From: an uncultured bacterium
Lineage (GTDB): Bacteria > Hydrothermota > Tepidihabitantia > Tepidihabitantales > DTDR01
NCBI GenBank assembly: GCA_964505415.1
Contig: CAZDHW010000002.1
Location: 45,226 to 109,225, forward strand
Direction: 5' to 3'
Length of the DNA stretch: 64,000 nt
The notes beneath the pieces are model-generated. The model was given only the letters and a program-made list of their open reading frames with translations. It ran no database searches and was not told the DNA's origin. A program made the translations under genes and the position numbers. Positions 9,455 through 56,297 of this stretch are shown in pieces. Numbering within the stretch: position 1 is the first letter of the stretch; each line of letters opens with the position of its first letter.

Positions 9455-10962
9455 AAATCCTTTGGATTGATGATGAAATTGAACTTTTAAAACCTTTTAT
9501 CTATTTTCTTAAAGAAAAAGGGTACGAAATAAAAGAAGTGAATAATGGCATTGAAGGTTTAAATAAAATAAAAGAAGAAAATTTTGATTTAGTCTTTTTA
9601 GACGAGATGATGCCCGGTTTAGATGGTTTGGAAATTGCTCGGAAGATAAAAAATTATGATCCCAATATTTTTGTAGTGATGGTTACAAAAGTAAGTGACG
9701 AAGATTTCATTGATGAAGCCTATGCCAATTTGGTTGATGATTTTATCCTTAAACCTTTAAATCCAGTCCAGATTTTGGCCGTAATTAAAAGGTTATTAGA
9801 AAAAAAAGAAATCTTTAAAGAAAACTTAGTGCGTGAGTATTTAAAAATTCTTTCCGGAACAAAAGATTTTGAAACTTTTGAAGAATGGTGTGATTTTTAT
9901 CAACAATTGATAAAATGGCGAGAATATCTTAATCGATTTTCTTTAAATGATTTAAAAGAAAGTTACGAAGATATTTTAAAAGAGGGTAATGAAAATTTTG
10001 CTACCTTTATTGAGGAGAATTATTGTGATTGGTTAAAAAATAAAAAAGGGCCAATACTTTCTCACCAATTTTTTGAAAATTTTGTTAAGCCCCATTTGGA
10101 TAAATTGCCTTTATACTGGATAATTTTTGATTCGCTCCGGCTTGATCAGTGGTATTTTCTTTATAACATTTTGAAAGAACATTTTTTAATAAAACAGAAT
10201 TTTTATTGTTCGATTCTTCCTTCAGCAACACCTTATGCTCGTAATGCTTTGTTAAGCGGTTTAACACCGAAAAAAATTTTTGAATATTATCCAGAATATT
10301 GGGTATTTACTGATGTTGGACAAAATCGCTACGAAGAACAGCTTTTTCAAAAACTCTTAGCTAGAGAAAGAATTTCTTTAAAATATTTTTATTTAAAAAT
10401 TATAAGGATGGAAGACCTAATTGAGAAATTTGACTATCTTCTAAAGCCTGACGTTGGGATTGTGATAGTCATCATAAATTTTTTAGATTTTCTTATCCAT
10501 TCAGCTCGGGAAACTTTGTTTATTAAAGAAATTGCTGAAAATGAAGATTCTTTGTTAGAATTTACTAAAATCTGGTTTAACTCTTCTTTAATTTTTCAAT
10601 TTTTAAAAAAACTTAAAGAGAACGAGAGAAAAATAATTATTACTTCCGATCACGGATTTATTAAAGTGAAAAGGCCGACAATTATTTATGGAGGGCGAGA
10701 GATTTCGCCTAATCTTCGTTACAAATCAGGCGGTGGAATAACCATTGATAAAAAAGCTGCCTGGCTTTTAGAACCGAAGGAATTAGAATTGCCACAAGAA
10801 TTTTTGGGTGAAAAATACGCCATTTGTAAAAGCGATTATTATTTTATTTATCCTACCAAACCTAAAGAATATGAAAAAATTTATAAATTGACTTATCAAC
10901 ATGGAGGTATTTCACTTCAGGAAATGATTTTACCGGTAGGAATTTTATACCCCCTTGATTAA
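9451..10962 (+). CDS. response regulator with CheY-like receiver fused to a PglZ/alkaline-phosphatase-like effector domain (PorX-like)
   Basis: Receiver region MKILWIDDEIELL...DLVFLDEMMPGLDGLE...VVMVTK. C-terminal AP-superfamily motifs IIFDSLRLDQW, IIITSDHGF and YQHGGISLQEMILP as in PglZ. 503 aa, against roughly 518 aa recalled for PorX of P. gingivalis. Confidence 0.7.
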   Translation: MKILWIDDEIELLKPFIYFLKEKGYEIKEVNNGIEGLNKIKEENFDLVFLDEMMPGLDGLEIARKIKNYDPNIFVVMVTKVSDEDFIDEAYANLVDDFILKPLNPVQILAVIKRLLEKKEIFKENLVREYLKILSGTKDFETFEEWCDFYQQLIKWREYLNRFSLNDLKESYEDILKEGNENFATFIEENYCDWLKNKKGPILSHQFFENFVKPHLDKLPLYWIIFDSLRLDQWYFLYNILKEHFLIKQNFYCSILPSATPYARNALLSGLTPKKIFEYYPEYWVFTDVGQNRYEEQLFQKLLARERISLKYFYLKIIRMEDLIEKFDYLLKPDVGIVIVIINFLDFLIHSARETLFIKEIAENEDSLLEFTKIWFNSSLIFQFLKKLKENERKIIITSDHGFIKVKRPTIIYGGREISPNLRYKSGGGITIDKKAAWLLEPKELELPQEFLGEKYAICKSDYYFIYPTKPKEYEKIYKLTYQHGGISLQEMILPVGILYPLD

Positions 10963-10990
10963 ATTTATAAATTTATTTATAATAAATTTA

Positions 10991-11500
10991 ATGCCTGAAT
11001 TTACTTTTTTAGAAATTTTAAAAAAAGAACATTTTTTGATTGAAAGGGCATTACGAACCATGACTCTTTTGATAGTCAAAGACCAGTATTTAGAAAGAGA
11101 ATTTCAATTGGTTTACCAGATAATAAAAGATTTTGTAGAAGATAATCATTGTGCCAAAGAAGAAGAGATTTTATTTCCATTAATAAGAGAATACGAAATT
11201 GATGCCCAATTGGTGATGGTTAATGAGTCAGAAAAAAGAAAAGAAATTATTGAAACCTTGGAAAAAGGATTAAAAGATTTGGATAAAGAGAAATTTTTGG
11301 TAGGTTTACAAGATTTTATAGAAATTTTTGCTCGTCATATTTTTAAGGAAGAGGGTCTTATTTTTCCTGCCTGCGAAGCTCTTTTACCATCGGATATTAA
11401 TGAAAAAATTGTTAAAGATTTTAAAGAATATGAAAGAGATAACAGGGATTATGATTATTTTCTAAAAATCGTTGAAGATTTAGAAAAGATTATTTTCTAA
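10991..11500 (+). CDS. hemerythrin-like (HHE cation-binding) domain protein
   Basis: Two H..KEE..(L/I)FP motifs ([22 protein letters not shown]). ATG at 10991 is preferred over the upstream TTG, which would overlap the regulator's stop. Confidence 0.6.
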
Positions 11501-11501
11501 A

Positions 11502-14339
11502 ATGACTGAAAACAATTATATTTTTATTAAAGGTGCTCGGGAACATAATTTGAAAAATCTTACTTTGAAAATTCCACGTAACAAAATGGTAGTAATTACA
11601 GGGATTTCTGGTTCAGGTAAGTCTTCTTTGGCTTTCGATACTATTTATGCTGAAGGTCAAAGAAGGTATATTGAATCACTTTCTTCTTACGCTCGGCAGT
11701 TTTTAGGAGTATTAGAAAAACCAGATGTTGATTATATTGAGGGGCTTTCGCCCGCAATTGCCATTGAGCAGCGGACAGCAGCTAAAAATCCTCGTTCAAC
11801 TGTTGGTACCGTAACGGAAATTTATGATTATTTACGGGTTCTTTTTGCTCGTTTAGGAAAACCTTTCTGCCCATATTGTAATAAAGAAATTGCTTCTCAA
11901 ACATTAGACCAAATAATCGACCAAATCTCTTCTTATCCGGAAAATACTAAATTAATAATATTGGCACCTGTTGTTAGGGGAAGAAAAGGTGAATATCAAA
12001 CTCTTTTGGAAAAAATAAAAAAAAGGGGTTTTTTAAGGGTAAGAGTGGATGGAAAAATTTATGAGATTTCGGAAGTTAAAAATTTAGAAAAATATAAAAA
12101 ACATAATATTGAAATTCTTATCGATCGGTTAGTTTTATTAGAAGAAAATAAAAAACGATTGGCTGATTCGATAGAATTAGCATTAAAAGAGGGGCAAGGC
12201 TTATGTGTAGTGATTTTTGATGAGAAAGAGGAAAAAATTTTTTCTGAAAAGTTTGCCTGTGTCGATTGTGGTTTTTCTTATGAAGAAATTTCTCCCCGGC
12301 TTTTCTCTTTTAATTCACCTTACGGTGCTTGTTCAGCATGTCACGGCTTAGGGACAAAAATGGAAATTGATCCTGAAAGATTAATTGTTGACCCAAAGCT
12401 TTCCATTAATGAAGGAGTAATTGAAGTTTGGGGAGAGCCCAAAGGCCGTTGGTTTACTTCGGTTTTAAAAGCTTTGGCAAAAAATTATGGTTTTTCTTTA
12501 AATACTCCGTGGGAAAAACTGCCCAAGAAGGTGAAGGAGATAATTCTGTATGGTAGCAATGAAGAAATTTTGGTGGAGCACGAAAGATGGGACGGTACTC
12601 ACTACAAATTTTATGAAGAGTTTGAAGGGGTTATTCCCCATTTAATGCGAATTTATCAAACTACCGAATCAGAAAGTACCCGGGAATGGATCGAGAGATA
12701 TATGTCAATTTTACCTTGTCCCGAATGCGGTGGAGCACGCCTTAAAAAAGAGGCACTCTCAGTTAAAATTAACGGTTATTCTATTTATGACATTTGTAGA
12801 TTATCTATTAGAGAATGTTATCAATTTTTTGATAATTTAAAATTAAATGAACAAGAAAAAAAGATTGCTCAGGAATTAATTAATGAAATTAAAAAAAGAT
12901 TAAACTTTTTGATTGAAGTAGGTGTTGATTATTTAACTTTAGAAAGAAGAACTGATACCTTAGGAGGTGGTGAAGAACAACGAGTGCGGTTAGCAACGCA
13001 AATTGGCTCAGGTTTAGTTGGCGTAACTTATATTTTAGATGAACCCAGTATTGGCTTACATATGCGAGATAACCATAAGCTAATTCAGACATTATTAAGA
13101 TTAAGAGATTTAGGAAATACAGTTATAGTGGTGGAACATGATCGGGATACAATTTTAGCTAGCGACTATGTAATTGATTTAGGTCCGGGAGCTGGAGAAA
13201 AAGGTGGATATATTGTGGCTACTGGTACACCGGAAGAAATTATGAATAATCCCAACTCCTTAACCGGTGCCTATTTAAGTGGTAAGAGAGAAATTCCTTT
13301 ACCTGAAAAGAGAAGGAAAGGAAACGGTAAGTTTTTAATAGTGAAAGGTTGTTCGGAAAATAATTTAAAAAATATTGATGTTACAATTCCTTTAGGCATG
13401 TTTGTCTGTCTTACTGGTGTTTCCGGTTCGGGAAAAAGTACTTTTATGAATGATATCCTTTACAAAGCCTTAGCCGAAAAATTTTATGGTTCAAGAGAAA
13501 AACCCGGCAAATTTAAAGAAATTATTGGTTGGGAAGAAATTGATAAAGTGGTAAATATCGATCAGTCACCTATTGGTCGAACCCCTCGGTCTAATCCGGC
13601 AACTTATACTAACGTTTTTACACCAATAAGAGAACTTTTTGCTCAAACCAAAGAAGCCAAGATGAGAGGTTATTCTCCAGGAAGATTTTCTTTTAATGTT
13701 CGCGGTGGTCGTTGTGAAAACTGTGGTGGCGATGGAATTAAAAAAATTGAAATGCATTTTTTGCCAGATGTATACGTGACTTGTGAAGTTTGTAAAGGGA
13801 AAAGATATAATCGGGAAACTTTAGAAATAAGATATAAAGGAAAAAATATTTATGATGTTTTGGAAATGACTGTAAATGAGGCTTTAGAATTTTTCTATAA
13901 TATTCCAGCAATAAGAAGAAAATTAGAGATGTTGCGGGACGTAGGATTAGGTTACATAAAATTAGGACAGCCAGCCACTACTTTGTCTGGTGGCGAAGCT
14001 CAAAGGGTTAAATTAGCAAGAGAATTATCAAAAATTGGTACCGGAAAAACTTTATATCTATTAGATGAACCAACTACGGGTCTTCATTTTGAAGATATTC
14101 GATTATTGTTAATTGTTCTTAATCGGTTGGTGGATAAAGGTAACACAGTACTTGTTATTGAGCATAATTTGGATGTGATAAAATGTGCCGATTGGATAAT
14201 TGATTTAGGACCAGAAGGAGGCGAAAATGGTGGTTATATTGTTGCTTGTGGTACGCCCGAGGAAATTGCTCGCTGTGAAAAATCCTATACTGGAAAATTT
14301 TTAAGAGAAGTATTAAGAAGACACGGAATTCAATTCTAA
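11502..14339 (+). CDS. uvrA: excinuclease ABC subunit A
   Basis: 945 aa with two ABC ATPase modules ([19 protein letters not shown]; LSGGE signature twice) and zinc-finger CxxC pairs. Confidence 0.97.
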
Positions 14340-15116
14340 ATTTTTCTCACAAATTCGTTCAATTCTTTTGGCTTTATAAGTAGCGGAATCAATTTCAACA
14401 ATTACTCCCTCTACTTTTAAATTGGTATTTGCTGGGATAAGACGATAATTGATTCCGTAAAGTAATCTTTTTAAAGAGTCTTCGATCTCCATACCTAAAA
14501 TAGAGTCATGGGCACCGCACATTCCAACATCAGTTATATAAGCAGTGCCCTTAGGCAAAATTTGTTCATCGGCCGTAGGGATATGGGTATGGGTTCCTAA
14601 GACGGCGCTTACTTTTCCATCTAAAAAATATCCCATAGCTTTTTTTTCAGCAGTGGCTTCTGCATGAAAATCAACAATAATAATTTTTTTGTTATTAATT
14701 TTGATTAATTCTTCGTCAATTCGGCGAAAAGGACAATCTAGGGGTTTCATAAAAACTCTGCCGATAAGATTTATGATAATAACTAACTGATTATTTTTTT
14801 CTAGAATACATATTCCTTTTCCTGGGGCTTCTGGAGGATAATTGAGCGGTCGAATAATACGGTTTTCTTTTTCTAAATAATTAATAATCTCTTTGCGATC
14901 AAAAGCATGGTCACCTAAAGTAATGCAATCTATCCCCAAAGATAAAAAATCTTCAACAATTTGAGGAGTAATTCCAAAACCTCCCGCAGCATTTTCGCCA
15001 TTCACAATGATAACATCGGGTTTGTATCTTTCTTTTAAAAATTTTACTCCTTTCACCAATGCTTTCCTCCCGGATTCTCCACACACATCACCCAAAAAAA
15101 GAATTTTATAATTCAT
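14313..15116 (-). CDS. ymdB: YmdB-family metallophosphoesterase (2',3'-cyclic-nucleotide phosphodiesterase-like, TIGR00282)
   Basis: [20 protein letters not shown]... with GENAAGG and GTHTH motifs. Lies directly downstream of rny, as in B. subtilis. Confidence 0.85.
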
Positions 15117-16626: not shown

Positions 16627-16649
16627 AGTTTCCCCTTTTTAAAATTGAA

Positions 16650-16823
16650 GGCTCCCCGTAGTATCGTGTTGGCGATGGTCTCTGAACCCTAAAAAAACTA
16701 TGGCGTCCTAAGGTGGGTCCTATCTTTGGAGGTCACCCTCCCGATAGTAAGCACCATCGGACATCCATCATTTAGGTGTTGGCTCAAGACCATTTTTACC
16801 AATCACGAATACTACCGGGAGCC
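16650..16823 (-). ncRNA. structured rod-like ncRNA, best guess 6S RNA (SsrS)-like; SRP RNA is the alternative
   Basis: About 174-nt GC-rich island between zapA and rny with no ORF. The 5' GGCUCCCGGUAGUAUUCGUG pairs with the 3' CACGAUACUACGGGGAGCC. Nested internal stems GGUCUUGAGCC/GGUUCAGAGACC (one G-U, supports the minus strand), CUAUC/GAUAG, and an apical GGGAGG-GUGA-CCUCC GNRA hairpin. Its 5' end overlaps the last 4 codons of zapA. Confidence 0.45.
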
Positions 16824-17087
16824 TTTATTATTTACCAATTTTTCAATGAGCATGTCTAATTTTTCTTTTAAAAAATTTTCTTGTTTTTCTTGACTATCCA
16901 ACAGTTCCTCAATAAGATTAAGAGAACCAAAAAGAATTAATTCGCTAAAATCTAAATAAGGAAATTTTTCTTTAAATTCTTTTACTTTATTCTCTAAAAG
17001 ACCAAACAATTTTTTTAAATATTCTTCATCACGGTCGCTTTTTACTTCATAAGTTCGTTCCAAAAATTTGATTTGGAAGCTTTTCAT
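16812..17087 (-). CDS. zapA: cell division protein ZapA-like
   Basis: 91 aa; N-terminal beta region (FQIKFLERTYEVKSDRDEEYLKKL) followed by a coiled-coil, ZapA-like in size and pattern. Confidence 0.55.
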   Translation of the reverse strand: MKSFQIKFLERTYEVKSDRDEEYLKKLFGLLENKVKEFKEKFPYLDFSELILFGSLNLIEELLDSQEKQENFLKEKLDMLIEKLVNNKGSR

Positions 17088-17281
17088 ATTTTAAGTTTAC
17101 CGAAACTTTTCAATTTTTCAATAAGAAATTTTACTTTTTTCAAACTTTTTTCTATTTTTTCTTGATAATGAGCCAATTCTTTTTTTAAAATGTCGTTTTC
17201 TTCTTTTAAAGATTTATTTTCGTGTAAAATTTTTTCTATTGATTCTTCCAAAATTTTTAACCGCTTTTCAATTTCATTCAT
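17084..17281 (-). CDS. small coiled-coil protein (ZapB-like?), hypothetical
   Basis: 65 aa, entirely heptad-like (LKEENDILKKELAHYQEKIEK). Translationally coupled between pheT and zapA. Confidence 0.4.
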   Translation of the reverse strand: MNEIEKRLKILEESIEKILHENKSLKEENDILKKELAHYQEKIEKSLKKVKFLIEKLKSFGKLKI

Positions 17282-22055: not shown

Positions 22056-22540
22056 TTATAAAAGTACGGTAAAGGAAAATTTAAGAATTTAAAAAAATTC
22101 CACTTAAGACCCCAAATCATCCAGGGAATGCCTATAGCCCTAACTTTAAATAACCGCTTTTAGCTAAAATATAAAAAGCACATAAAATCAACTAAATTTT
22201 TTCAATCTTTTCGTCATTTATAAACCTATTCTTTCCCACTTTAAAAATTCTATTCTTAGAAGAAGTACTTTTTCTATTCAAAACCAGCCTTTTACTACTA
22301 CTCTTTGGCTCAGTTTTATACCCTCTTCTATATTAGTGATTTTTCTCTAAATGTTATTAAATTATACACTCTTTAGTATAAAAAATCAAGATAAAGTTGA
22401 AAAGAAAGATTACTATTTGTAGCTACTGGTATCACATATTGTTTATCATGATATCTCCATCATTCCCGGGAATGGTAATTTTCCTGTCCTTTAAATTTAA
22501 ATTTCTTATTTAAAATTAGTCTTTTTAGCAAAAAGTCAAA

Positions 22541-47033: not shown

Positions 47034-48772
47034 CAGCCATTTTTTCTTTCTCTGATACTTTTTAAAAATTTTATAACCTTATTGAAATCCCAAGCATTAA
47101 CCACATCTTCTTTTTCTAACCAACCTCTTCTTGCTATTCCAATACCAAATTTCATCCATTCTAAATCTTTTACTCCGTGGGCGTCAGTATTAATTGCAAT
47201 TTTTATTCCCAAGCTTTTAGCTTTTCTTAAATGGAGTTCGTCTAAATCTAGTCTATCCGGATAGGCATTTAATTCCATTATTTTATTATATTTTTGAGCA
47301 TATTCCAGAACCTTTTCAATATCTACTTCATAACCTTCTCTTTTTGATATTAATCTTCCTTGGGGATGGGCAATAATATGAACATAAGGATTTTTAATAG
47401 CTTCAATTAATCTTTCGGTAACCTTCTTTTTAAATCCTTGATGGACAGCAGCAACTACCACATCGCATTCTTTTAAAATTTCATCAGAAAAATCTAAGCC
47501 GCCATCAGGTAGGATATCCACTTCTATCCCTTTAAGAATTTTTATATCTTTATATTTCTTAGAAAGGCGATCAATTTCTTCCCACTGTTTTTTTAATCTT
47601 TCTTCATCTAACCCGTGAGCATATTTAGCAAATTTTGAATGGTCAGTAATAGCGATATATTGATAACCCAGCTTCCGACAGGCATTTACCATTGTTTCCA
47701 AATCATCTAATCCGTCGGAATAAGTAGTATGAATTTGAAAATCTCCCTTGATATCTTTTAATTCGATTAATTTTGGCAATTCACCTTTTTGAGCAGCTTC
47801 AATTTCTCCTCGGTCTTCTCTTAATTCTGGAGGGATCCAAACCAAGCCAATTGCCTTATATACCTCTTCTTCGGTTCTGCCGGCAATCATTTTTTCTCCT
47901 TTGAAAACACCGTATTCGGATATTTTTAAACCTTTTTCTTTAGCAATGCTTCTTAATTTGATATTATGGGCTTTAGAGCCAGTAAAATATTGTAAAGCTG
48001 CGCCGTAAGACTCTTCCGGAACAATTCGGATATCTACCTGTCGTGCCTCTTTGCCACTGCCAATCATTACTGAGGCTTTCGTATCGCCAGCAGCTAATAC
48101 CCGCGAAACCTTTGGATATTTAGTAAAATATTCAATAATATCTAAACGGTCTTCATCTTTACAAGTAATTAAAATATCAATATCACCAATTGTTTCTTTA
48201 TACCTTCTTAAAGAGCCTGAAGGGCAGATTTCTTTTACTTTCGGATTTTTCTTTAAATATTCAACCACTTCTTCAGCAATTGCTAAAGCTTCATTAAGGG
48301 GAATTCTCGCCTGTGATTGTTCATAAAGTTCAATACCTTTTTTAATATTTTCTACTTTCTTAGGACCCATTCCGAAAAGTCTTGCCAATGAGCCATTTTC
48401 AATAACCCTTTTTAAATCGTCTAAATTTTTGACTCCTAATTCCTTATGAGCAAGCGCCAAGGTTTTGGGTCCAAGATTTTGAATTGATAAAAGTTCTAAA
48501 AGTCCCTCAGGAATTCCAGCTAAAGCCTCTTCATATTTTTTCATCCTGCCGGTCTCTAGATATTCAATAATTTTCTTCTCAATCCCTTCACCAATACCGG
48601 GAATTTCTCTCAATTTTCCTTTTTTATAAAGTTCTTCTACATCCTCAGTCAATTCTTCTAATACTCTCGCTGCTTTGCGATAGGCTATTACTCGATATTG
48701 TAATTCTCCTTTATATTCTAAAGCATCAGCAATGGTATTGAAAATCTTTGCCAATTCTTTATTTTTGCTCAT
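47033..48772 (-). CDS. polX: DNA polymerase X family protein with C-terminal PHP phosphoesterase domain
   Basis: N-terminal pol-beta-like HhH region (IPGIGEGIEKKI, GDIDIL) and a C-terminal PHP domain (QIHTTYSDG...ITDH). Confidence 0.9.
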   Translation of the reverse strand: MSKNKELAKIFNTIADALEYKGELQYRVIAYRKAARVLEELTEDVEELYKKGKLREIPGIGEGIEKKIIEYLETGRMKKYEEALAGIPEGLLELLSIQNLGPKTLALAHKELGVKNLDDLKRVIENGSLARLFGMGPKKVENIKKGIELYEQSQARIPLNEALAIAEEVVEYLKKNPKVKEICPSGSLRRYKETIGDIDILITCKDEDRLDIIEYFTKYPKVSRVLAAGDTKASVMIGSGKEARQVDIRIVPEESYGAALQYFTGSKAHNIKLRSIAKEKGLKISEYGVFKGEKMIAGRTEEEVYKAIGLVWIPPELREDRGEIEAAQKGELPKLIELKDIKGDFQIHTTYSDGLDDLETMVNACRKLGYQYIAITDHSKFAKYAHGLDEERLKKQWEEIDRLSKKYKDIKILKGIEVDILPDGGLDFSDEILKECDVVVAAVHQGFKKKVTERLIEAIKNPYVHIIAHPQGRLISKREGYEVDIEKVLEYAQKYNKIMELNAYPDRLDLDELHLRKAKSLGIKIAINTDAHGVKDLEWMKFGIGIARRGWLEKEDVVNAWDFNKVIKFLKSIRERKNG

Positions 48773-48983
48773 AACATTCCCATTGGTTATTAGGCAATTT
48801 TATTATTTTATAATACTTATTATTACAGAAACAGATAAAAACGGTTTTTCTTTCTCGTGTTTTATAATCTTCCTTAATTTCTTTGTAAAGAATTTTTTCA
48901 ATTAAAAACTCTTTATTATTAATAACGATTGCTCTTGGTCTTTCCTCTCCTTTATAGCCACAATAAATTTTAACTTCCAGCAT
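48759..48983 (-). CDS. small hypothetical protein (74 aa) overlapping polX start
   Basis: ORF only. Cys-containing (CGY...CFC...WEC) with a 14-nt overlap with polX. May be spurious. Confidence 0.3.
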   Translation of the reverse strand: MLEVKIYCGYKGEERPRAIVINNKEFLIEKILYKEIKEDYKTRERKTVFICFCNNKYYKIIKLPNNQWECYEQK

Positions 48984-51114: not shown

Positions 51115-51836
51115 TTATTTCATTTTAACTATCTTTTTCTTATTGATCTTTCCTTCTTTTGTTTTTAAATAATAAAAATAGACTCCCTTAGGTAATTCTT
51201 TTTCTTTACTGTCAAAGTTTAATCTTTTCATTAATTTTCCAAAAGAATTATAAATCAGAATTTCTACCGGCTTGGTTTTCAATGAATATTGGGAAAAAAT
51301 CTCAGCAATTCCCAATTGCGATGGTAAACTAACAACAATAAAATCAGAAGTGGTATCATTTCCCCAGCTTGAGCCACAAATATAAAGGTTATTGTCAATA
51401 CCAGAAGCAATAGCAGTAGCCCAATCATAATAATTTCCCGGTCCATTATAACGTTAAACCCATCTTTCCCTTCCTTCATTATTTAAACTGATAATAATAA
51501 AATCAGTATCAGAGCCTCTTTCATAAGCTTTTCCACATGCATAAATATTTCCATCCTCTCCATAAATAATGGAATAACCATACCCGTTTCTATATTGATA
51601 TACCCATCTTTCTCTTCCTTCAGGGTTTAAACTAATAACTAAAAAATAAGATAAAGTGTCGTTAATAAAACTACTTCCGCAAATATAAATGTTTCCATCA
51701 AGACCGTAGACAAGAGAGTTAGCATATTCGTAATTTTTTGGTCTATTGTAGCGATAAATCCATTTTTCCGACTGAGCTGAAGAAAATGTGTAAAAAATGG
51801 TAAATAAAATAGAAAAAGATAATTCTTTTTTTCATA
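51115..51836 (-). pseudogene. disrupted gene for a small SBBP (beta-propeller) repeat protein with T9SS CTD
   Basis: Minus-strand frames give signal peptide (M)KKELSFSILFTIFYTFSSA|QSE, then SBBP repeats W(I/V)YRYNxPxNxxDxAxAIA...GNIYxCG x3, then CTD ...KGVYFYYLKTKEGKI. Broken by a +1 frameshift in an A7 run just after the ATG (~51824-51832) and an in-frame TAA where Tyr is expected (WV*RYNGPGN, ~51457). Confidence 0.6.
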
Positions 51837-51840
51837 TTAT

Positions 51841-54800
51841 TTAAGATTTGGCAATAATATCAAGTTTTATAAGGTAAATACCGGTTCCCAATTTTTTAAT
51901 ATCTACTACCAAATGATTGGTATTGTTTTTTGTTTGATAGATAACTTCTCCGAGGGCATTATAAATTGTTAGTTTAACAGAAAATTTAAGAGGTAATGGA
52001 TAATAAATTTTAAGATAACCCTTTACCAATGCGAGTATCGCAGAAAAATCTTTTAAATCTTTTGTTTTCTTATTAATATTAATAATTTCGTCGCTATTAG
52101 GCCACAAAAACTCGTGTTAGGAATATAAAGTCAGAATTCATTAGTATTATTACCCACAAAGGCATAAAGACCACCAGTCCTTTTGGAATAAGTAAGTGCG
52201 CCACCTCCTTTTACTTTTTTGTTGGCGTACCTTCGGGTTTACCAACATCTAATTCAATATTCCATTGGTCGGTTTTTGGGTTGTAAGAAAAGAACTCTAA
52301 GGTATTGCCACCTTTTAAAGCATAAATAAGACCATTATCAGGATTATAAACACCGGCGCTACCTTCTCTTGCTTTCTTTTTTATTACTCCAACTATCGTT
52401 GGTCGTTGTCATATAAAATTCATTCGTCTCGCCACCGACTCTTAAGGCATAAATCTTTAGTGTATCGCTGGGAACACACACAATCCATGAACCTTTTTCC
52501 ATTTGTCAGCTGGTAAAGTTGCCAGATTGCAAATCTCAAAAGAATCAGCAACAATATTAAATTTAATCCATTCATTATTATTAGAACCGCAAATTATATA
52601 AATATAATTAGAACCATCAAAAGCCATTGATGAACCTTTTATCTCTTTGGTGAAAGGAATTATATATTCTTTCCAAGAATCTTTTTCTGGCTTATAGCGC
52701 CAGAACTCTTTAGTGTTATTCCCTTTGATCACATAGATGAGTGAGTCACCATCACCACAAATAGAAGCCCCGTATTTCACATTTTTCTTTTTTAAGGTGA
52801 GATAGGAAAAAGGTACTTCGCTCTTCTTTGTCCAAATATTGGTAGTCACATCGTATTCCATTAAGTCTCTTGTATTATTACCAACAAGGCATAAACTTTA
52901 TCACCAAGCGATGCTAAGGCACCTCCATTTTTAATTGGTGTTGTCGCACCACTAACATTTGGCATCTTATGCCATCCAGGGGTTAAGGAAATTACGCGGA
53001 ACGAATCAACGATTGAATCGTTTGCTGGATTTATGTCACCTGATAAAGCAGTCTTTAAAATAGTTGTAAAATTACCGGTATCCGTACAGAAATAAGGTAT
53101 AAAGCTTAAAGTAACTTCGGTATCCGGAAGTACATTATTATAATTAGAATCAATATACACCAAAAGATTATTTTTATAAATCTTAAAGTAAGTCCAGAAT
53201 GATGATGGATAATCACCATAATTTTTCACTTTACCAGAAACTGGGTACGGTATATTTGAATCTATTAAAATTACACCGCTTGGCGAAACGATTTTAATTG
53301 CTCCCACATCTAAAATTCCTCCTCTATAAGAACTTACTGCCAAATCATTATTAGGATTTAAATCCCTTTCAGTGATTGTTCGGAAATAAGCATAATGACT
53401 TCCCGATGTTACTGTAATGGATTCATCAAAAACAATAATTTCTTCCCAATCTGGTGGTATATAAGAAATTGTTTTTTCTTGAAGATAATTTATTTCCGGA
53501 ATTGAACATTTAACCATAATATTAAATTCATCAAGGGTTCCGTAATTTTTTACCTTACATTTAGGTAGCAATTTTGTGTTGAGAGGATAATTACCATTTG
53601 GGTGAATAATTTGGGAAATGCCCACATCTTTCCAATACACAAAAAAATTCTTTTTTAGGGTGTCATTTCTTCTATTTTCATCGGGTGGCCAATAAACAAT
53701 TGCTACACCAATGTAAGGACCGGCTGTTTCTGGAGACCAAGAAGGATAGATTAATAAGGTATCCCTATTAGGAAGTAAAGAATCAATAAATTTTGCTTCA
53801 CTATAACGAAGAGGCCATTAGTATCGTAAATTTTAAAATAAACAGCAAAATTTTGAGCAATCGTTTTTCCATAATTTTGAATAATTATTTTTGGTTCAAG
53901 GGGTAATTTAGGGATACTATCAAGAGGAGAAATAATCTCTTTTACTCCAATATCACATAATTTAAAATCTTGTATCGTTTATAATAAATCCGATAACAAT
54001 AATTAGTATAATGTCCGAAATCTCGCCGAAAAAGATGAAGATTACCGTCTGGGGTAGCAACAATTTCTGGAAAGTATCGAGAGCCGGTATTAAAATGAAC
54101 AACCGTATCCGGCCCCTCCCAATTTCCTTCTGGAGTTCTTACAAATCTTACAATGTCATAAGAAGGACCTATCTCATTAGTTCTTACTACTACTTGGAGG
54201 TTATTGAATTTATCAACTGCACAAGATGGATTTTCCCGGCGATAACTACTTTGAAGAACTACCACCTCTGACCAACCTCTATTAGTTTTTACTCTGTGGG
54301 CAATATGGGGATAATATTCATTAGCAAGATAAGCTTCCCAAACTACATGGACATTTCCTTCGCTATCAATAGCAACTCGGGGGTTATAATTATGATAACT
54401 ATTAGGAAATACTGATAAAGTTTCTATTGGTCCCCATAAACCATTGGAATTTCTCATTCGATAGAAAATATTATATAAAGCATTACCTATCGGAAGGTAA
54501 GAACTCCATACAATATGAATCCTATTTTGACCATCAACCGCAATAGCCGGTTGTTGAGAAGTATACATCCAGTCCATTGGTGATGCGGTATCAATATCTA
54601 CTATTATTGGAGAACAAGAAGGATATATTTTTGCGTAACCAATTCGATATCGACCACCCCAGGAGGCAGAAAATGTGCAATGTGCAGTATCTCCTTTTCC
54701 TCCGGCAATTTTAGGATAATTAGGGTAATTATTTGATTTTAATGGTAATGAGCATATTTGGGTATAATTTCCGTTCGCTAATTTTGCTCTATAAAAAAGC

Positions 54801-55170
54801 CATCGGGGAGAAGAAATAGAAGGATCGCCACGTCATAAAAAATGAACATTATTGTTGGAATCACCGGCGATACTAGGAGAATAATTATAAAGCAAATTAA
54901 TTCCCCCTCTGGCAGAAACGGTCTCTTCTTGCGACCAAGATCCCTTTGATCCTACCATCTCATAATTATCGGAAAATAAGGACCTTCTCGATACCAGATA
55001 CCATAAACCCGATTGTTAGGTGTGGGAGTTGCTCCATTATCATTATTAGTATCATTCTTAGAGGTTAAGCAAAAATCTTCTTCCCAACCAAGTATTTGTG
55101 GTTCTGAGAAAGATGGTGAGAAAGGTAAACATTATTTTTTTGGTGGAAAGGCAAAAACAAAAGAGATAAA
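51841..55170 (-). pseudogene. decayed gene(s) for a large multidomain T9SS cargo protein (BNR-like propeller + CARDB-like repeats + Kelch repeats + T9SS CTD)
   Basis: ORF-track pieces 53942-54577 (P.IA.D..GN.H.VW blades), 52861-53640 (two DVG...NYG CARDB-like repeats), 52457-52861 (Kelch) and 51841-52107 (CTD) are all homologous segments in different frames. Hand translation finds more CARDB/Kelch segments between them. Breaks sit at A6/A7/T5 runs plus a TGA where Kelch Trp is expected (NEF*LY). Confidence 0.5.
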
Positions 55171-55172
55171 AA

Positions 55173-56297
55173 TTAGGAAAGTGGGTATTGGTAAATACGG
55201 TATTTTTTGTAAAGTTTTACTTTCCAAACTTCTATTGGTTTTATAATATCTATATTATCTTCTAAAATCCAGGAAACTTCTCCCCATTCATAACCAAGTT
55301 TTTTACCTCCTAAAAAGGTTTCGTAATAAAGTAAAGCATCGGCGCCAGTTTTTCTAAATTTCTTTTTTATTCCCAATGCCCAAAGCCGGGCACTTTTTAT
55401 CCTTCTTTGATAATAGAAAAATTTGAAAATTCCAAAGGGAAAGAGTCGGCCATTTAGATGGCATAATACTTCGTTATAATTAGGTAAAGCAATGCTAATG
55501 CCTACCGGTTCATTATCAATTTCCACAATAGGAATAATCTCACTTTTAGCAATTGGTTTTAATTTCCTACCTAAATAGTTAATTTCTTCATCGGTTAATG
55601 GGGTAAAATCCCAGTTTTCTTGCCAGGCATCATTGTAGACTTCTTTAATCTTTGGTAACTCTATATCTAATTTTTTTAAATTAACCTTCCTCACAATAAA
55701 CTTTTCTTTCTTTTTTAATTTTTCTACCACATTTTGAACCTTTTCCGGAACAAATTGGTTTAAATCGATATAATAGGCGTATAAATCTTTTGCTTTACTC
55801 ATTCCGTATTTTTCAACCAGTTCTAAATAATAAGGTGGATTATAAGGCATTTTAATAGTGGGCGGTGAAGAAAATCCTTCGTATAAAAAGGCACATTCAT
55901 CATTTAAAGCCGGATTAGCCGGACCAACCATCAACTCCATTCCTTTTGCTTTTAACCATTCTTTGGCTTTATCAAAGAGAGCAGAGGCGATATCAAAATC
56001 GTTAATACTTTCAAAGAAACCGAAGAAACCAACCTTTTTTTGATGATGGTTTATATAATTATAATCAATAATTGCAGCAATCCGTCCAACAATTTCATCT
56101 TTAAAATAGGCTAAAAAAAGTTCTCGCTCCGCATGATTAAAATAGGGATTTTTCTCTTTGGAAAGAGTTTCTTTTACCTCACTGATAAGGGGAGGCACAA
56201 AATTTTTATCGTTACGGTAAATTTTAAAAGGTAGTTTGACAAATAAATCTAACTCTTTTTTATTTTCTACTTTTTTAACCTTAATAATTTCTTTCAC
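55173..56297 (-). CDS. two-domain GNAT/FemAB-like N-acyltransferase (possible bacterial ceramide-synthase-like or amino-lipid N-acyltransferase)
   Basis: 374 aa. Acyl-CoA N-acyltransferase-like pattern in both halves (…FLAYFKDEIVGRIAAIIDYNY…; …WALGIKKKFRKTGADALLY…). Sits 3 nt downstream of the Spt-like gene. Confidence 0.5.
   Translation of the reverse strand: MKEIIKVKKVENKKELDLFVKLPFKIYRNDKNFVPPLISEVKETLSKEKNPYFNHAERELFLAYFKDEIVGRIAAIIDYNYINHHQKKVGFFGFFESINDFDIASALFDKAKEWLKAKGMELMVGPANPALNDECAFLYEGFSSPPTIKMPYNPPYYLELVEKYGMSKAKDLYAYYIDLNQFVPEKVQNVVEKLKKKEKFIVRKVNLKKLDIELPKIKEVYNDAWQENWDFTPLTDEEINYLGRKLKPIAKSEIIPIVEIDNEPVGISIALPNYNEVLCHLNGRLFPFGIFKFFYYQRRIKSARLWALGIKKKFRKTGADALLYYETFLGGKKLGYEWGEVSWILEDNIDIIKPIEVWKVKLYKKYRIYQYPLS

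Follow-up and report, generated by a model that had tools for sequence, protein, structure and literature searches.

What has happened to the minus strand at positions 51115-55175 of the 64,000-nucleotide stretch of DNA analysed here (the window)? No long open reading frame (ORF) is present in this region, and recognisable pieces of protein are distributed across its three frames. Such a pattern could reflect genes that have died, genes that are intact in the cell and broken in the assembly, genes that are switched on and off, or fragments that are still read in an unusual manner. We conclude that the region very probably holds the remains of two adjacent, recently inactivated genes, here called gene A and gene B, which encoded predicted cargo proteins of the type IX secretion system (T9SS) in a thermophilic bacterium of candidate division WOR-3. 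This reading of the sequence is based on an intact, syntenic pair of orthologs, on at least 15 disabling lesions of several kinds, and on the presence of the same lesions in other assemblies.

An intact gene pair in a sister species

The region is bordered by the stop codon of a GNAT-family gene and the start of a Kelch-repeat gene, both intact. ORFs of at least 100 amino acids (aa) cover 44% of the region, compared with 94.6% of the remaining window. A profile search of the pieces identifies Kelch repeats, a weak BNR_4 match, and two T9SS type A C-terminal sorting domains (CTDs) that score 31.0 and 30.0 bits against TIGR04183 (cutoff 23). A preliminary description of this DNA had reported broken cargo-gene pieces scattered over three minus-strand frames, and both the pieces and their coordinates are borne out. 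Rfam and tRNA scans of 51115-55175 return no match, and none of the region's k-mers of 17 or more bases occurs a second time in the 64-kb window.

A hand-stitched reconstruction of gene A, the larger of the two, was used as the query in an ortholog search, and its best match is a protein of 1134 aa (P0001; 83% amino acid identity, 99% coverage). Over 1101 reference-frame codons the gene A remnant and the intact ortholog are 86% identical in nucleotides and 84% in amino acids. The cluster to which P0001 belongs has seven members, all single ORFs of 1101-1134 aa and six of them exactly 1134 aa. On the contigs that carry P0001 and the cluster member P0038 (L015 and L016, the latter part of a 177,775-bp contig), the gene order is ProRS, aminotransferase, GNAT (374 aa), gene A (1134 aa), gene B (512 aa), Kelch (689 aa), a 74-aa ORF, PolX and PurM, which is collinear with the window on both sides of the region. 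Comparison with orthologous loci in related genomes, which the preliminary description had proposed as a check, thus finds both genes intact.

The reference lineage is ~89% identical to the window in nucleotides (84-93% for flanking genes, with a synonymous divergence, dS, of ~0.37-0.77) and, judged by these sequences, is a sister species that represents a different population from that of the window. As reconstructed from the two loci, their common ancestor carried the order GNAT, gene A (1134 aa), gene B (512 aa) and Kelch. The 16 flanking genes compared all align with their orthologs along essentially the full length. Relative to the sister species, insertions and deletions (indels) are concentrated in the two remnants, with 18 events in the 3.3 kb of gene A and 6 in the 0.7 kb of gene B, as against none in 7.8 kb of one flank and 5 in 7.9 kb of the other. 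Gene B starts 5 nucleotides after the gene A stop, and the two genes therefore probably formed one transcription unit. Scans of genome and metagenome contig collections with P0001 recover only more distant paralogs (51-63% identity). At least two paralogs, P0006 and P0002, lie at another locus in related genomes and are ~60% identical over the C-terminal two thirds. The pairing of A with B is not conserved in a distant relative (L025), where the gene that follows P0005 encodes a BNR-like/CTD protein with no SBBP repeats.

An AlphaFold model of P0001 is all-beta, with a mean predicted local distance difference test score of 78.7, and is comprised of an N-terminal propeller (residues ~40-410), Ig-like/CARDB domains (~415-735), a Kelch propeller (~740-1040) and the CTD. 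A fold search with this model returns only generic propeller and Ig-like matches (integrin alpha ectodomains, a bacterial sialidase, galactose oxidase and a lectin), and a PDB sequence search with the ancestral protein returns no match. The CTDs of the gene A and gene B orthologs score 36.4 and 28.1 bits against TIGR04183 (cutoff 23), and the ortholog N-termini, MFKKFLMLIIFVSFVFL... and MKKKLFFSILFTIFYTFSLAQ..., resemble signal peptides by eye; in the window, the signal-like peptide of gene A is partly deleted and that of gene B is frameshifted. From the modelled architecture we infer that the ancestral gene A product may have been a secreted or surface-attached protein with a binding or glycan-active role. 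In the library searched, no paper links WOR-3 with T9SS or type IX secretion, though several WOR-3 proteins encountered here have CTDs above the curated cutoff. A 208-aa version of the fragment at 53942-54577 (minus strand) is named 'Exo-alpha-sialidase' in UniRef (A0A7V3ZVP2), a name that derives from weak BNR-like similarity in a broken gene.

Lesions, remaining fragments and timing

Base-level alignments to the intact ortholog yield the catalogue of lesions in Table 1. In total, gene A carries the start-region deletion, four nonsense codons, eight frame-shifting indels (six one-base deletions, the +2 insertion and the 35-bp deletion) and one 27-bp in-frame deletion. The start-region deletion takes with it an intergenic promoter-like site, the Shine-Dalgarno sequence GGGAGG, the ATG and codons 1-8, such that the GNAT stop codon now adjoins codon 9. 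The promoter-like site, TTGACT-17-TAAAAT, is located at 9954-9982 of L016 and has no counterpart in the window; as promoter scans return matches no more frequently than in shuffled AT-rich sequence, the statement that a promoter was deleted depends on position and consensus only. At the opposite end of gene A, the remnant CTD matches positions 15-58 of the 72-position TIGR04183 profile, compared with 13-72 in the ortholog. In gene B, the 789-bp contraction removes five of eight SBBP blades and leaves three, and there are further in-frame losses of 3 and 27 bp. What had been described as a 'small' SBBP gene is therefore the contracted remnant of a 512-aa gene.

Table 1. Positions in the window of the two pseudogenes, their intact neighbours and the individual lesions.
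Feature	Position	Strand	Remarks
Gene A pseudogene	51841..55175	minus	remnant of predicted 1134-aa T9SS cargo; BNR-like propeller, CARDB/Ig-like, Kelch, CTD
Gene B pseudogene	51115..51835	minus	remnant of predicted 512-aa 8-blade SBBP T9SS cargo; 3 blades and CTD left
Kelch-repeat protein, intact, 690 aa	48997..51069	minus	downstream neighbour; distant paralog of gene A C-terminal half
GNAT-family protein, intact, 374 aa	55173..56297	minus	upstream neighbour; stop codon adjoins gene A remnant
Gene A, start-region deletion junction	55170..55180	minus	93 bp lost relative to L016, 109 bp relative to L008; TAATT microhomology at both ends
Gene A, nonsense CAA (Gln21) to TAA	55132..55134	minus	from alignment
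Gene A, nonsense TGG (Trp81) to TAG	54952..54954	minus	1-bp deletion follows, ~54945
Gene A, nonsense TGG (Trp121) to TGA	54833..54835	minus	VHFL*RGD
Gene A, +2 insertion, frameshift	53959..53960	minus	boundary of propeller and first CARDB domain; placement ambiguous
Gene A, 1-bp deletion in CCTCCTCC, frameshift	53811..53813 (~53812)	minus	from alignment
Gene A, 1-bp deletion, GCCCTT/GCTCTT to GCCTT	52889..52891 (~52890)	minus	polymorphic; not in L014 or P0061/P0062
Gene A, 1-bp deletion, frameshift	52496..52498 (~52497)	minus	inside Kelch blade
Gene A, 35-bp deletion	52373..52383	minus	flanked by AAAAAAGAAA direct repeats
Gene A, 1-bp deletion, frameshift at TPTKK/VKGGG	52215..52220 (~52218)	minus	ortholog AAAGAAAG, window A6
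Gene A, nonsense TGG (Trp1034) to TGA	52131..52133	minus	NEF*LY
Gene A, 1-bp deletion, frameshift	52102..52104 (~52103)	minus	immediately before CTD
Gene A, in-frame 27-bp deletion, CTD end	51844..51862	minus	9 codons of last strands gone
Gene B, +1 frameshift, codon 4	51825..51832	minus	window A7 then G; ortholog ATG A9 TTG
Gene B, TAA replacing Tyr, and contraction junction	51454..51460	minus	TAA at 51456-51454; 789 bp lost in frame

The five breaks named in the preliminary description are all found at the positions it gave: the A7 run of gene B (51832-51826, followed by G at 51825), the TAA at 51456-51454, the two A6 runs of gene A (52382-52377 and 52220-52215) and the TGA at 52133-52131. 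Its list for gene A did not itemise the start deletion, three more nonsense codons, the frameshifts at ~54945, 53960, 53812, 52890, 52497 and 52103, or the CTD deletion. The further idea that the genes are broken at homopolymer runs is correct only in part: at 52382 the break results from the loss of 35 bp between AAAAAAGAAA direct repeats, and at 52218 the ortholog possesses AAAGAAAG in place of an A-run. No single event can reverse the lesions of either gene. A reassignment of TGA as a sense codon was ruled out, as the other genes of the window are open under code 11.

With L016 as the reference, Nei-Gojobori estimates give gene A a nonsynonymous divergence (dN) of 0.082 and a dS of 0.499, for a dN/dS of 0.164; the ratio is 0.105 for gene B, 0.109 for the Kelch neighbour and 0.02-0.17 for the other flanking genes. 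Such low values in genes A and B indicate that purifying selection acted on both during most of the period that followed the split from the sister species. If the earlier dN/dS of gene A is taken to have equalled that of the Kelch neighbour, then its excess dN amounts to ~0.031 neutral substitutions per site, or ~105 substitutions since inactivation (~3% neutral divergence, compared with ~50% synonymous divergence). Given that 4.5-5.1% of the possible point changes in the ortholog coding sequence create a stop, ~5 nonsense codons would be expected and 4 are observed, so that the nonsense count and the estimate of neutral divergence are roughly self-consistent, short of proof. A test for AT bias detects no GC-to-AT excess in the pseudogenes relative to the flanks; this is uninformative, since no AT shift is expected in a pseudogene so young.

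These ratios also bear on whether the fragments could still be in use, through programmed frameshifting, stop readthrough, or as short stand-alone proteins such as a 394-aa CARDB-Kelch ORF present in one related allele (L014, described below). Continued use would fit with the low dN/dS and with the survival of long ORFs that have possible start codons (211, 259 and 134 aa). Recent inactivation accounts for the low dN/dS, the orthologs are uninterrupted single ORFs and hence offer no conserved recoding site, the internal fragments lack a signal peptide, and a CTD is found only on ORFs of 88 and 66 aa. We therefore consider it very improbable that the fragments function, and treat the ORFs of 211, 254/259, 134, 88 and 66 aa as pseudogene fragments that should not be counted as proteins in annotation; likewise, the name 'Exo-alpha-sialidase' should not be propagated.

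Alleles in other assemblies and the intact neighbours

Independent public assemblies allow a local cluster of frameshifts in a metagenome-assembled genome to be checked without reads. Two Logan assemblies of different runs reproduce the region base for base, SRR7540196_33 (6622 bp) over 55652-49031 and SRR5468562_7383 over 55652-52568, each 100% identical to the window. JGI 3300008019 Ga0105158_1006200 (L007) covers 55290-51455 and differs by one substitution and one 1-bp deletion; the latter is private to this allele, at 52363-52362, and brings the total loss to -36 together with the 35-bp deletion. JGI 3300009590 Ga0105159_1010002 (L014) covers 54432-52262 with three 1-bp differences, among them two private insertions (~52299 and ~52272) near its contig end. 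The 1-bp deletion at 52890 is absent from L014 and from the ENA protein P0061, in which the 259-aa and 134-aa ORFs are consequently fused into 394 aa and 389 aa, respectively, and from this absence we conclude that the deletion is younger than the other lesions. As related alleles share most lesions and differ by private 1-bp indels, decay is ongoing. The A6 and A7 tracts are identical in all alleles that cover them (2-4 alleles per tract), and the polymorphic indels are found elsewhere, in runs of 2-5 bases. Four other contigs, which together contribute ~33 kb of flanking sequence, show 10 substitutions and no indels relative to the window.

Could the genes nonetheless be intact in the cell, with the breaks introduced by miscalled homopolymers or by a chimeric consensus of strains or paralogs? 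Two observations lean in that direction, namely the fragmentation of other assemblies around the locus and the fact that 1-bp indels are the main difference between near-identical alleles. Miscalled homopolymers are incompatible with five nonsense substitutions and with deletions of 35, 93-109 and 789 bp, and the exact reproduction of the region by assemblies of two different runs, next to flanks that are free of indels between assemblies, speaks against consensus errors. Chimerism is also implausible, as the adjacent Kelch paralog is only 29% identical to the gene A ortholog and the window contains no repeated k-mer of 17 or more bases. We regard an artefact, including the mixing of paralogs that the preliminary description had raised, as extremely unlikely.

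The same description had offered a slippage-prone contingency region as a further option, in which changes in A-run length would toggle expression of a surface protein. Surface proteins are typical targets of phase variation, and A7 or A6 runs do occur at or near three of the breaks. A single slip, however, restores neither gene in the face of at least 15 independent lesions, most of which are nonsense codons, multi-base deletions or indels outside long runs, and the start region of gene A is gone. Moreover, a long run is missing from the intact orthologs at two of the three sites, where they have AAAGAAAG and the 35-bp segment, respectively; the longest run in question is A7, and each tract has one and the same length in all alleles that span it. 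This leaves phase variation with next to no credibility, and of the options in the preliminary description it is genuine, localised pseudogenisation that stands.

Several points weigh against the conclusion that these are young pseudogenes, and should be kept in view. The dN/dS of gene A, 0.16, barely exceeds that of its neighbours, and so substitutions alone do not demonstrate relaxed constraint and the case for inactivation rests on the disabling lesions. Among near-identical alleles the ratio of indels to substitutions is 4:1, and two of these indels, no more than 75 bp from a contig end, may be erroneous. The samples that carry pseudogene alleles may share one hot-spring system, and some may have libraries in common, making their independence incomplete. 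Finally, contigs of several other assemblies stop close to the region's edges (L001 at 51484, L007 at 51455, L003 at 55168 and L002 at 55708), and the same population may also contain variants that we do not see, among them intact or deleted alleles.

In all, contigs of four other assemblies terminate around the region, with further ends at 52568, 55652-55708 and 55839, and repeats offer no reason for these breaks, given the lack of any repeated k-mer of 17 or more bases within the window. Two contigs of JGI 3300008019 share a 123-bp overlap at 55168-55290 and are left unjoined, which suggests an unseen alternative path (a strain variant) at the deletion junction. A contig of this metagenome (Ga0105158) is listed under Little Hot Creek, a US Great Basin hot spring (82 °C, pH 6.8; PMC7689252), and a correction to Zhou et al. 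places the IMG dataset among those of B. P. Hedlund (PMC9599585).

The Kelch gene that follows the region had been described as an intact Kelch/T9SS paralog. Its intactness is clear, with 690 aa compared with 689 aa in the sister species and a dN/dS of 0.11; as a paralog it is distant (29% identity to P0001), and no CTD is detected in it by Pfam or NCBIfam at E<=0.01. A promoter-like site, TTGACT-17-TATTAT, lies at 51104-51076 (minus strand), 6 nucleotides before the ATG of this gene, and is also found in L016 and L021, a contig introduced below; there is no obvious Shine-Dalgarno sequence upstream, and the mRNA may lack a leader. A 74-aa ORF (48759-48983, minus strand) that lies between this gene and PolX has the same position and length in the sister species and a dN/dS of 0.11. 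No Pfam hit is recorded for this ORF, which is probably a genuine small gene. Outside the region, the largest stretches of the window without an ORF of at least 100 aa are 22056-22540, which has no ORF above 38 aa, and 16627-17277, and in neither is there a tRNA or any Rfam match that reaches the gathering threshold.

Repeated loss and comparison with known systems

The gene pair is also missing from a relative of the intact reference. In Ga0453288_0007 (L021; JGI 3300042910; 1,564,392 bp), only 37 bp separate the GNAT gene (373 aa) from the Kelch gene, and genes A and B are absent. Both flanks are 99.3-99.4% identical to those of L016, from which exactly 9928-14954 (5027 bp) is missing, and the GNAT gene has acquired a new stop codon at the junction (L021 7930-8040). 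The look-up that gave L021 reported one additional similar place. The window lineage is an outgroup to these two and retains the cassette, in decayed form, at the same place between GNAT and Kelch, which identifies the L021 state as a deletion. The same gene pair has thus been lost twice independently, by stepwise decay in the window and by a clean 5027-bp deletion in L021. The intact cassette is also found as separate 5-kb contigs (L008 and L009), and sample 3300050342, the source of L009, contains in addition a 1.56-Mb contig of the same genome (L018), which suggests that intact and deleted alleles coexist in that sample.

A paralogous CARDB/Kelch/CTD gene of 1419 aa shows a further polymorphism: it is intact in the 1.56-Mb contig of one sample and split into 1004 and 391 aa in a near-identical contig of another. 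The split (L018 ~15335 and ~15397, compared with L017 12369-16628) results from deletions of 14 bp and 1 bp, a net change of -15, with a stop codon in the shifted stretch; it is a second case of polymorphic inactivation within this gene family.

As to how the window arrived at its present state, inactivation would be recent relative to the split from the sister species. Selection on the A-B pair may have been relaxed, perhaps through redundancy with the two or more ~60%-identical paralogs present elsewhere in related genomes, and neutral mutation with deletion bias would currently be erasing the pair. Alternatively, loss of a surface protein may have been favoured. Given two independent losses, intact alleles that seem to coexist with a deletion, and a paralog that is polymorphically broken elsewhere, it is conceivable, if on balance doubtful, that loss of the cassette was favoured by selection and not only tolerated. 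Were this so, it would point to recurrent selection against exposed surface proteins, such as phage receptors or costly public goods, in a streamlining genome, and the locus would provide a natural system for following surface-protein turnover in an uncultured phylum. In either case, an uncultured thermophile with a genome of ~1.5 Mb appears to be shedding accessory secreted proteins, with the intact, decaying and deleted stages found in related populations.

With respect to known systems, the ancestral proteins resemble the type A CTD cargo of Bacteroidota and the FCB group (TIGR04183/PF18962) in having CTDs above the cutoff, signal-peptide-like N-termini and an architecture of propellers with Ig-like domains; they differ in that the host is a WOR-3 bacterium and the window copies are dead. 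Phase-variable contingency loci for surface proteins, which according to Moxon and colleagues reportedly switch by slippage in simple-sequence repeats, share with this locus the secreted or surface proteins encoded and the short A-runs at some breaks. Here, in contrast, neither gene has an otherwise open frame with a single hypermutable tract; the lesions are numerous and cannot be undone, and the tracts are invariant among alleles.

The locus can also be compared with the flexible, or 'metagenomic', islands that Rodriguez-Valera and colleagues are said to have described, which carry genes for cell-surface proteins and vary among co-occurring strains. The presence or absence of a 5-kb cassette at 99.3% flank identity, the contig breaks at its edges and the separate 5-kb contigs all fit with such an island, whereas the limitation to a two-gene cassette and the lack of mobility genes or any sign of allele replacement, with loss only, do not.

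The best match is to the bacterial pseudogenes that, by the accounts attributed to Mira, Ochman and Moran in 2001 and to Kuo and Ochman in 2010, are eroded by point lesions and deletion bias in many genomes. An intact homolog, multiple frameshifts and nonsense codons, microhomology-flanked deletions, an excess of deletions over insertions and full loss in a related lineage are all features of the present locus, and there is no essential difference between the two. The decay of genes A and B is thus a known kind of event, ordinary gene loss that involves no new mechanism, here seen in an uncultured thermophilic WOR-3 bacterium with a small genome (as judged by the 1.56-Mb sister contig), in which three states of one locus are documented.

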